From IMG/VR virus record IMGVR_UViG_2698536506_000009: a DNA stretch of 23,022 bases; one strand, given 5' to 3'. This DNA comes from a virus (lineage: Duplodnaviria > Heunggongvirae > Uroviricota > Caudoviricetes). The notes below the pieces were generated by a model that was not told the origin of the DNA, ran no database searches, and saw nothing but the letters and a program-made list of their open reading frames with translations. The position numbers and the translations under genes are program-made. How positions within the stretch are numbered: position 1 is the stretch's first letter; the number at the start of each line of letters is the position of its first letter. Positions 8,889 to 10,218 of this stretch are shown here, piece after piece.

Positions 8889-9167
8889 ATGGCACGCAAC
8901 GCAAAATATTACAATTCTGATAATTCGCCCGTTCTTGCCTGCACGCACGGGCGGTATTCTCACGCATTCAAGTCTGAATGGTTCCAGCACCCTCCATGCA
9001 CTGCAGAACAGGCCGAATGGCTGATTCATTCTTACCGCAGGCGCGGGTTCGAGGTTAAGAAAGCTCTCAGTCTCGACTATCGGCACTGGATAATCTCTGT
9101 CAGGCTGCCTTATTCCGAACGCCCACCACGTGCGTCCCGCACTTTCCAGCAACGGATCTGGAGGTAA
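8889..9167 (+). CDS. Hypothetical protein, translationally coupled to ydfU
   Basis: 92-aa ORF with GGAG 8 nt upstream. Its TAA (9165-9167) is 1 nt before the ydfU GTG and the ydfU SD (GGAGG, 9160-9164) lies inside its last codons. Confidence 0.4.
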   Translation: MARNAKYYNSDNSPVLACTHGRYSHAFKSEWFQHPPCTAEQAEWLIHSYRRRGFEVKKALSLDYRHWIISVRLPYSERPPRASRTFQQRIWR

Positions 9168-9168
9168 C

Positions 9169-10218
9169 GTGCGGGTATTACTTAGACCTGTTCTGGTGCC
9201 TGAGCTTGGGCTGGTGGTCCTTAAGCCGGGCCGTGAATCCATACAGATATTTCATAATCCTCGAGTGCTGGTGGAACCGGAACCAAAAAGCATGCGTAAT
9301 CTGCCATCCGGAGTCGTTCCTGCCGTTCGCCAGCCGCTGGCGGAAGACAAAACATTGCTGCCGTTTTTTAGTAACGAACGGGTGATTCGTGCTGCTGGCG
9401 GCGTTGGCGCATTGTCCGACTGGCTATTACGTCATGTTACATCCTGCCAGTGGCCTAATGGCGATTACCATCACACTGAAACAGTCATTCACCGTTATGG
9501 TACCGGCGCAATGGTGTTGTGCTGGCACTGCGACAACCAACTGCGTGACCAGACATCGGAATCACTGGAGCTGCTTGCTCAACAAAATCTGACAGCATGG
9601 GTGATTGACGTCATCCGTCACGCAATAAGCGGTACGCAGGAGCGGGAATTATCTTTGGCTGAATTATCCTGGTGGGCGGTCTGCAATCAGGTGGTGGATG
9701 CACTACCTGAGGCTGTATCGCGTCGTTCGCTGGGATTACCAGCGGAAAAAATCTGCTCGGTGTACCGCGAAAGCGACATCGTACCGGGAGAGCAGACCGC
9801 CACCAGCATATTGAAACAACGCACAAAAAATCTTGCACCGTTGCCTTACGCCCACCAGCAACAAAAATCACCACAGGAAAAGACGGTGGTAAGCATCACC
9901 GTTGATCCAGAGTCTCCGGAATCTTTCATGAAGCTGCCTAAACGTCGCCGCTGGGTTAAGGAGAAATACACACGTTGGGTTAAGACACAGCCGTGTGCTT
10001 GCTGCGGTATGCCAGCCGACGATCCGCATCATCTGATTGGTCACGGGCAGGGCGGAATGGGAACAAAAGCACATGATCTCTTTGTGTTGCCTTTGTGCAG
10101 AAAGCATCACAACGAGCTGCATACGGATACAGTGGCATTTGAAGATAAGTATGGCTCCCAACTGGAGCTGATATTTCGTTTTATCGATCGCGCGCTGACA
10201 ATTGGCGTACTGGCGTAA
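9169..10218 (+). CDS. ydfU: YdfU-like protein with C-terminal HNH-like Cys/His cluster
   Basis: GTG start giving 349 aa, matching the K-12 ydfU length as I recall it. C-terminus has CACCGMPADDPHHLIGHGQGG...PLCRKHHNELH. Confidence 0.7.
   Translation: MRVLLRPVLVPELGLVVLKPGRESIQIFHNPRVLVEPEPKSMRNLPSGVVPAVRQPLAEDKTLLPFFSNERVIRAAGGVGALSDWLLRHVTSCQWPNGDYHHTETVIHRYGTGAMVLCWHCDNQLRDQTSESLELLAQQNLTAWVIDVIRHAISGTQERELSLAELSWWAVCNQVVDALPEAVSRRSLGLPAEKICSVYRESDIVPGEQTATSILKQRTKNLAPLPYAHQQQKSPQEKTVVSITVDPESPESFMKLPKRRRWVKEKYTRWVKTQPCACCGMPADDPHHLIGHGQGGMGTKAHDLFVLPLCRKHHNELHTDTVAFEDKYGSQLELIFRFIDRALTIGVLA

Follow-up and report, generated by a model that had tools for sequence, protein, structure and literature searches.

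ydfU of the Qin prophage: a predicted His-Me finger (HNH) protein and the conserved small gene that precedes it

What kind of protein does ydfU encode, and does the small ORF that ends one nucleotide before its start codon belong with it as a partner? The question arises in a 23,022-nucleotide stretch of viral DNA (IMG/VR record IMGVR_UViG_2698536506_000009; referred to below as the window, with all coordinates counted from its first nucleotide), which is the Qin cryptic prophage of Escherichia coli K-12. The 2-kb stretch around ydfU is 100% identical to E. coli K-12-type chromosomes, and at least 80% of it is found in 2,378 of 5,426 complete E. coli genomes. The genes of Qin run in the order relB, relE, hokD, rem, a 92-aa ORF, ydfU (b1560), ydfT/quuQ, cspF and cspB. 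A first-pass annotation of this DNA had placed ydfU in the nin-region position before Q, and the gene that follows it is indeed that of a Q antiterminator. The features needed for the first part of the argument are these:

8878..8881, + strand: GGAG Shine-Dalgarno-like site, 7 nt 5' of the small-gene ATG (read from the sequence)
8889..9167, + strand: small gene, 92 aa, ATG start (from the ORF list; PGAP hypothetical protein WP_012304870)
8889..8966, + strand: N-terminal extension of the small protein, codons 1-26, found in the Escherichia form only; variable and predicted disordered
8967..9167, + strand: 66-aa core of the small protein, predicted beta-alpha-beta-beta fold plus basic tail (PRPSRTFQQRIWR)
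9160..9164, + strand: GGAGG, the ydfU Shine-Dalgarno sequence, within the terminal TGG AGG sense codons of the small gene; the same in each of 159 loci
9169..10218, + strand: ydfU (b1560), GTG start, 349 aa; full-length match to phrog_96 'HNH endonuclease' (E 7e-171)
10235..10984, + strand: ydfT/quuQ, Q-type late antiterminator, the next gene after ydfU (Pfam Antiterm, E 3.4e-54; annotation)

Besides its Antiterm domain, the ydfT/quuQ product carries a match to the DnaJ-type CXXCXGXG zinc finger over residues 147-192 (PF00684, E 1.3e-8). On the other side of the locus, a strong intrinsic-terminator-like hairpin (8423-8449; AACCCGC-TTCG-GCGGGTT followed by a T-run) lies just 3' of hokD, and a promoter-like site (8463-8492) lies between this hairpin and rem. 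An in vivo survey counted the terminator 5' of ydfU as one of the strongest in E. coli that depend on Rho and grouped ydfU with Rho-silenced 'toxic prophage genes' (PMC9160355). The Rho-terminator region (about 8823-9168) would include the 92-aa ORF, and such strong termination 5' of ydfU implies that this ORF is poorly translated in uninduced K-12; with Qin cryptic and a Rho terminator upstream, ydfU itself may be silent in K-12.

Across Escherichia, the cassette has the order hokD, rem, small gene, ydfU, rusA where present, and Q (141 loci), with hokD and/or rem found 5' of it in 110 of 137 loci. A RusA gene lies within 900 nt 3' of ydfU, before Q where Q is in range, in 90 of the 141 loci, suggesting that YdfU is probably not itself the Holliday-junction resolvase of the cassette; the Qin cassette of K-12 is without RusA. 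In a few genomes (at most six contigs) YdfU and Q are joined in 607-aa fusion proteins (P0123, P0124 and P0126), which presumably reflect small indels at the ydfU/ydfT junction (10216-10235), and PF27659 appears in the Pfam annotation list of these three fusions.

The small gene and its junction with ydfU

Is the 92-aa ORF a gene at all? The curated MG1655 record (NC_000913.3) annotates none between rem and ydfU (complement 1644306-1644584), no Pfam family was matched by the predicted product, and the first 26 codons are poorly conserved, all of which would suit an ORF arisen by chance or what is left of a gene deleted upstream. PGAP annotates the ORF as a hypothetical protein in other K-12-like genomes. 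Among 61 distinct nucleotide alleles, dN/dS is 0.21 overall, 0.12 over codons 27-66 and as low as 0.057 over codons 67-92, the latter despite a synonymous divergence (pS) of 0.28-0.47 over core and tail, which argues that the conservation of the tail acts at the protein level. The same alleles have in-frame indels and a dN/dS of 0.62 over codons 2-26; residues 1-22 have pLDDT <50 in the predicted structure, and the N-terminal extension is missing altogether in homologues of 66-69 aa. Residues 27-92 align with positions 1-66 of the 66-position profile phrog_1212 (E 1.7e-35), which represents an uncharacterised 66-aa lambdoid family. The 66-69 aa homologues form 418 clusters, from Escherichia, Salmonella, Citrobacter, Klebsiella, Enterobacter, Kluyvera, Cronobacter and Serratia among others, and homologues are also present in phages mEp237, SPN3UB, phiES15, PY54 and N15.

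That the ORF is not a gene is thus hard to reconcile with a dN/dS of 0.06-0.12 over codons 27-92 amid abundant synonymous change, with homologous clusters spread over so many genera, with the confident small fold that structure prediction gives the protein, or with the failure to find a DUF1367 remnant upstream, where the N-terminal extension was compared as such a remnant and no match appeared in any frame of 8300-9000. At the level of sequence analysis the non-gene reading is refuted, and we regard it as so improbable as to be nearly negligible. Judged by its alleles and homologues, the 92-aa ORF is a real gene under purifying selection, and the MG1655 reference annotation should gain it between rem and ydfU. 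Identification of its product with λ NinD, NinE, NinF or NinH, or with P1 PdcA, was tried and rejected (hhalign probabilities of at most 0.3%). The phrog_1212-type family has no Pfam entry, and its steady placement makes it a cheap candidate for testing in lambdoid recombination.

The small gene ends in TGG AGG TAA, with the stop codon at 9165-9167, a single C at 9168 and the ydfU GTG at 9169, so that the initial description of this junction (an ORF ending 1 nt before the GTG, with the Shine-Dalgarno sequence inside the upstream coding sequence) is accurate to the nucleotide. The arrangement is no peculiarity of Qin. In all 159 Escherichia loci with the 90-92 aa form of the small gene, the junction reads TGGAGGTAA[C/T][G/A]TG (TGGAGGTAA-C-GTG in the window), and in all of them a YdfU homologue follows, 143 of the 149 complete downstream ORFs being 348-353 aa long. 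Codon 92 of the small gene is always AGG while the other Arg codons of the gene vary, which suggests selection on the Shine-Dalgarno sequence.

Where, then, does ydfU start? Two observations support 9169: its GTG is replaced by ATG in four of the 159 loci, and an alternative upstream GTG at 9130, the older start giving a 362-aa protein, is lost in most alleles, in which codon 82 is CCG or CCA and not GCG. The current MG1655 record also has the 349-aa form of YdfU, and for annotation the 349-aa GTG start is supported. A programmed +1 frameshift at AGG-TAA was considered and found no support: reading in +1 is possible from 9130 on, but a slippery codon and a prfB-like spacing are both lacking, and the upstream GTG is, again, lost in most alleles. 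Stop and start lie within a few nucleotides of each other and the distal Shine-Dalgarno sequence lies inside the proximal ORF, which are the structural marks of a translationally coupled pair. Translation of ydfU begins at GTG 9169 by way of the GGAGG that the final two codons of the small gene contain, and, with the small-gene stop only 1 nt upstream, its initiation is probably coupled to termination on the small gene, as far as the arrangement of these signals can tell.

Neighbours of the small gene and of ydfU

Does so tight a junction make the two genes a functional pair? The small protein and YdfU might form a specific two-subunit enzyme, or a nuclease and its immunity protein in the manner of a toxin-antitoxin system, with coupling setting their ratio. 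Several features invite this thought. The 1-nt gap and the embedded Shine-Dalgarno sequence are invariant in the 159 loci, purifying selection on the small protein, which has a basic tail, is strong, small immunity proteins often accompany HNH toxins, the toxin-antitoxin loci relBE and hokD lie just upstream, and ydfU has been classed among the Rho-silenced 'toxic prophage genes' (PMC9160355). The answer comes from the company that each gene keeps in other phages.

Across 30 diverse loci, what comes after the small gene is NinG (14 loci), YbcO (nine), RusA (three) or YdfU, the first three being unrelated or only distantly related to YdfU, and a DUF1367 gene stands 5' of it in 27 of 29 loci; DUF1367 matches the PHROG named for the NinB/Orf recombination mediator. 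Conversely, no small-gene homologue was found within 1.5 kb of five distant YdfU homologues, those of SfV, Klebsiella phage 1 LV-2017, Yersinia YeP3, Vibrio Cla and P1, in a search whose positive controls scored about E 1e-40. What stays constant beside YdfU is the late regulator downstream of it: its homologues are followed immediately by Q in SfV, Klebsiella phage 1 LV-2017 and YeP3, and by lpa in P1. Moreover, abutting or overlapping genes are the rule in these nin regions.

The first-pass annotation had suggested checking whether homologues encode the two ORFs as one protein. Among the clusters listed (the best 120 of 129 and of 418 small-protein clusters, and the best 120 of 1,567 YdfU clusters) a conserved fusion was sought in vain, and fusions occur there only as singletons: P0122, a 438-aa protein from one contig, is the product of a 13-nt deletion at the junction, and P0096 and P0097 are chimeric fragments. 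At E <= 0.01, none of YdfU, the small protein and Rem matched a PADLOC model. Given the other genes that follow small-gene homologues, the distant YdfU homologues that lack one nearby, the lack of conserved fusions among the clusters listed and the absence of PADLOC matches, a dedicated enzyme or nuclease/immunity pair is quite unlikely, and a toxin/immunity or defence role finds little support.

Because the small gene precedes NinG, YbcO or RusA elsewhere and YdfU homologues occur without it, it does not behave as a dedicated partner of YdfU, and co-occurrence, as an obligate two-gene system would show it, fails across the range of either gene. Of the 'two-gene unit' proposed at first, the invariant Escherichia junction and the purifying selection on the small gene stand, and the exclusive association does not; the 92-aa ORF is conserved in close relatives, and distant relatives of ydfU lack it. 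By the evidence of gene order, the two form a lineage-specific operon junction of two independently mobile nin-region genes, not an obligate pair. The small protein would then be a neighbour within the nin-region cassette, placed between the DUF1367 mediator gene and whichever nuclease gene follows (NinG, YbcO, RusA or YdfU), and presumably not a YdfU-specific subunit.

Domains and proposed role of YdfU

The 349-aa protein falls into the following parts:

9169..9738, + strand: N-terminal region (about residues 1-190), of no known family, with a conserved Cys/His cluster
9445..9531, + strand: second Cys/His cluster, C93-Q ... H101/H102 ... C118-W-H-C121-D-N, outside the Pfam DUF968 model
9739..9933, + strand: linker (about residues 191-255), low-confidence and variable (pLDDT 47-69; indel-rich alignment)
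9934..10215, + strand: C-terminal His-Me finger (HNH) domain, with putative zinc ligands C276, C279, C310 and H313 and putative catalytic or metal-binding residues H287, H288, D303, H314 and H318

The C-terminal motifs, C276-A-C-C279-G, D285-P-H287-H288-LIGHGQGG and P308-L-C310-RK-H313-H314-N-EL-H318, were the basis of the first suggestion that this end of YdfU looks like a His-Me finger nuclease. The profile search for HNH- or NinG-like domains that had been proposed as a check speaks for the first of these. Apart from the phrog_96 match over its full length, residues 160-346 of YdfU match the whole of Pfam DUF968 (PF06147; model 1-171 of 171, E 2.6e-76, 255.9 bits against a cut-off of 27.8). 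HNHc_6 (PF16784), the Orf-fused HNH domain of Gram-positive phages, falls just below its gathering threshold (26.3 against 26.6 bits; model 123-184 of 204), and RecA_dep_nuc (PF16786) falls further below its own (17.8 against 26.9 bits), both of these sub-threshold matches lying on residues 268-328. Neither NinG/Rap (PF05766) nor YbcO/DUF1364 (PF07102) was reported as a Pfam match to YdfU. When profiles were compared with profiles, the YdfU C-terminus aligned with nine YbcO-family proteins at an hhalign probability of 92.8% (E 4e-7), and the same profile gave a weak, marginal alignment with 11 NinG sequences (24.6%, E 8e-4).

The predicted structure agrees with the profiles. An AlphaFold2 model of YdfU, built with 33 homologues, has a mean pLDDT of 84.9 and contains a beta-beta-alpha unit at residues 285-319 with pLDDT >90, and thus the hallmark of the His-Me fold, a beta-hairpin followed by an alpha-helix that together form the metal site; a library of viral structures returned stand-alone DUF968/HNH proteins of about 110 aa. 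Among the 33 homologues, which reach down to 26% identity, C276 and D303 are invariant and the four His residues H287, H288, H314 and H318 nearly so; some distant ones have lost zinc ligands. The YbcO-family residue aligned to the H287/H288 site is His. By analogy with colicin-type HNH enzymes, H314 and H318 of the model would be the metal ligands of the helix. Profiles, homology to YbcO and the predicted fold thus support the view that the YdfU C-terminus is a predicted HNH (His-Me finger) domain, and this view has been published before: Jablonska et al. (2017) assign YdfU (NP_416078) to His-Me finger group 7, which also includes DUF1364/YbcO (PDB 3g27), describe this group 7/DUF968 family as prophage genes adjoining RusA and Q, and propose a role in recombination and repair (PMC5714182), while a nuclease-like function had been predicted for DUF1364 by Kaur and Subramanian (2016) (PMC4999995). 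No biochemical report on YdfU, DUF968 or PdcB was found in the literature. YdfU can, with reasonable confidence, be annotated as a predicted His-Me finger (HNH) nuclease of the DUF968/YbcO group.

The HNH module also comes in at least three alleles on near-identical N-terminal halves (CACCGMPADD...CRKHHNELH, CACCGKPADD...CREHHNELH and CMTCGNQADD...CRKCHNELH; window 9900-10215; loci L025, L051 and others). Distinct HNH alleles joined to near-identical N-terminal halves point to recombination within ydfU near the linker.

What of the remainder of the protein? The Pfam model leaves out residues 1-159, which are nevertheless conserved in full-length homologues from SfV, mEp390, phages of Klebsiella, Yersinia, Edwardsiella and Vibrio, and P1 (PdcB); no Pfam or PDB match was found for the N-terminal region. 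Its cluster has the consensus CQ...YCH...LCWHHDN, with C93 and C118 invariant and Q94, W119 and D122 near-invariant in the 33 homologues down to 26% identity, and in the AlphaFold2 model it is carried by a beta-hairpin (105-118) and a helix (119-125). This site is probably a zinc site. The conserved Cys/His N-domain appears to be undescribed, being absent from the available part of Jablonska et al. (2017). An hhalign comparison of the N-terminal cluster with the C-terminal HNH domain gave an in-register alignment that is not significant (E 0.079).

How would such a protein act? We consider it likely, overall, that YdfU is a two-part nin-region protein with an HNH domain and probably a metal-dependent endonuclease, and that the small gene is its cassette neighbour. 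An N-terminal region of about 190 aa would be connected by a flexible linker to the C-terminal beta-beta-alpha-metal domain of the DUF968/YbcO group; H288, at the end of strand 1, may serve as the general base, H287, H314 and H318 would hold the catalytic metal, and C276, C279, C310 and H313 would hold a structural zinc. Expressed from the early rightward transcript immediately ahead of Q, YdfU would most likely be a divalent-metal-dependent DNA endonuclease with intermediates of phage recombination or replication as its substrates, in the manner of λ NinG/Rap and P1 Ref.

It is conceivable, alternatively, that the HNH-like zinc-finger scaffold is catalytically inactive and that YdfU is a DNA-binding or regulatory protein. 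One member of group 7 is annotated as a 'phage transcriptional regulator' in the survey of Jablonska et al. (2017) (PMC5714182). Likewise, no activity has ever been reported, ydfU adjoins the gene of the transcription regulator Q, and the Asn of the classical H-N-H is not obvious, D303 being the invariant residue there. The His pair and the H-x3-H of the helix are, however, near-invariant down to 26% identity, and such a combination is what a working metal site would be expected to show, colicin-type HNH enzymes being an example; loss of catalysis is therefore very unlikely. Nor does a selfish homing or packaging-associated endonuclease, as opposed to a recombination or replication factor, fit the protein well. 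Phage HNH genes often encode homing endonucleases or helpers of terminase, and the PHROG label is simply 'HNH endonuclease', but the place of ydfU before Q (or lpa) is fixed in distant phages and is not beside terminase, there is no intron or intein context, YdfU, conserved as a two-domain protein of about 350 aa, takes a place in the recombination cassette that NinG, YbcO or RusA fills elsewhere, and the recombination nuclease Ref is the closest match to it in structure. We hold this reading to be very improbable indeed.

The endonuclease reading of YdfU with the small gene as neighbour could be extended by two further proposals which, taken jointly, are possible though unlikely. In the first, phrog_1212 would be an accessory factor of the nin module, a DNA-binding protein or an adaptor, working with the NinB/Orf mediator and the junction nuclease that follows, and coupled to YdfU in the Qin lineage; in the second, which is separate, the N-terminal unit of YdfU would derive from an internal duplication, as another zinc module of the beta-beta-alpha type, now degenerate, and would serve substrate recognition, the lead for this being the non-significant in-register alignment with the HNH domain. 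As the HNH reading already stands in the literature and in the PHROG library, what is added here is incremental: a conserved gene missing from the MG1655 annotation, the synteny of its small family with recombination genes, and the N-domain of YdfU. The current understanding of phage biology is unchanged, and the value lies mainly in annotation.

Comparison with known systems

From DUF968 (PF06147)/His-Me finger group 7 there is no difference to report, YdfU being the named E. coli member of that group in Jablonska et al. (2017), except that the Pfam model leaves the second Cys/His cluster outside, with the rest of residues 1-159. The λ NinG/Rap protein (PF05766), a branch-specific endonuclease, is likewise a nin-region His-Me finger protein whose gene precedes Q, and in 14 of 30 loci that gene comes after a member of the same small-gene family; its similarity to YdfU is marginal at the profile level, with no Pfam match, and its architecture is different. 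P1 Ref, a RecA-dependent HNH nuclease (PF16786, PDB 3plw), has a disordered basic N-terminus, unlike the N-domain of YdfU.

A second P1 protein, PdcB, listed as of 'unknown function' and non-essential, is a full-length homologue with 26% identity over YdfU residues 32-348. In the P1 segment pdcA-pdcB-lpa (L199, 1177-2448), pdcB stands just before the late activator gene lpa and has the 66-aa ORF pdcA upstream, an arrangement as in Qin, although PdcA has no detectable relation to the Qin small protein (hhalign probability 0.1%). Related to the C-terminal domain is YbcO of prophage DLP12 and phage 82 (PF07102, PDB 3g27), the nuclease function of which is itself predicted only. YbcO consists of one free-standing domain of about 96 aa, in which a single His takes the place of the HH of YdfU, and YdfU adds about 255 N-terminal residues to such a domain; by these sequence comparisons, YdfU would represent a sister family related to YbcO rather than a member of it.
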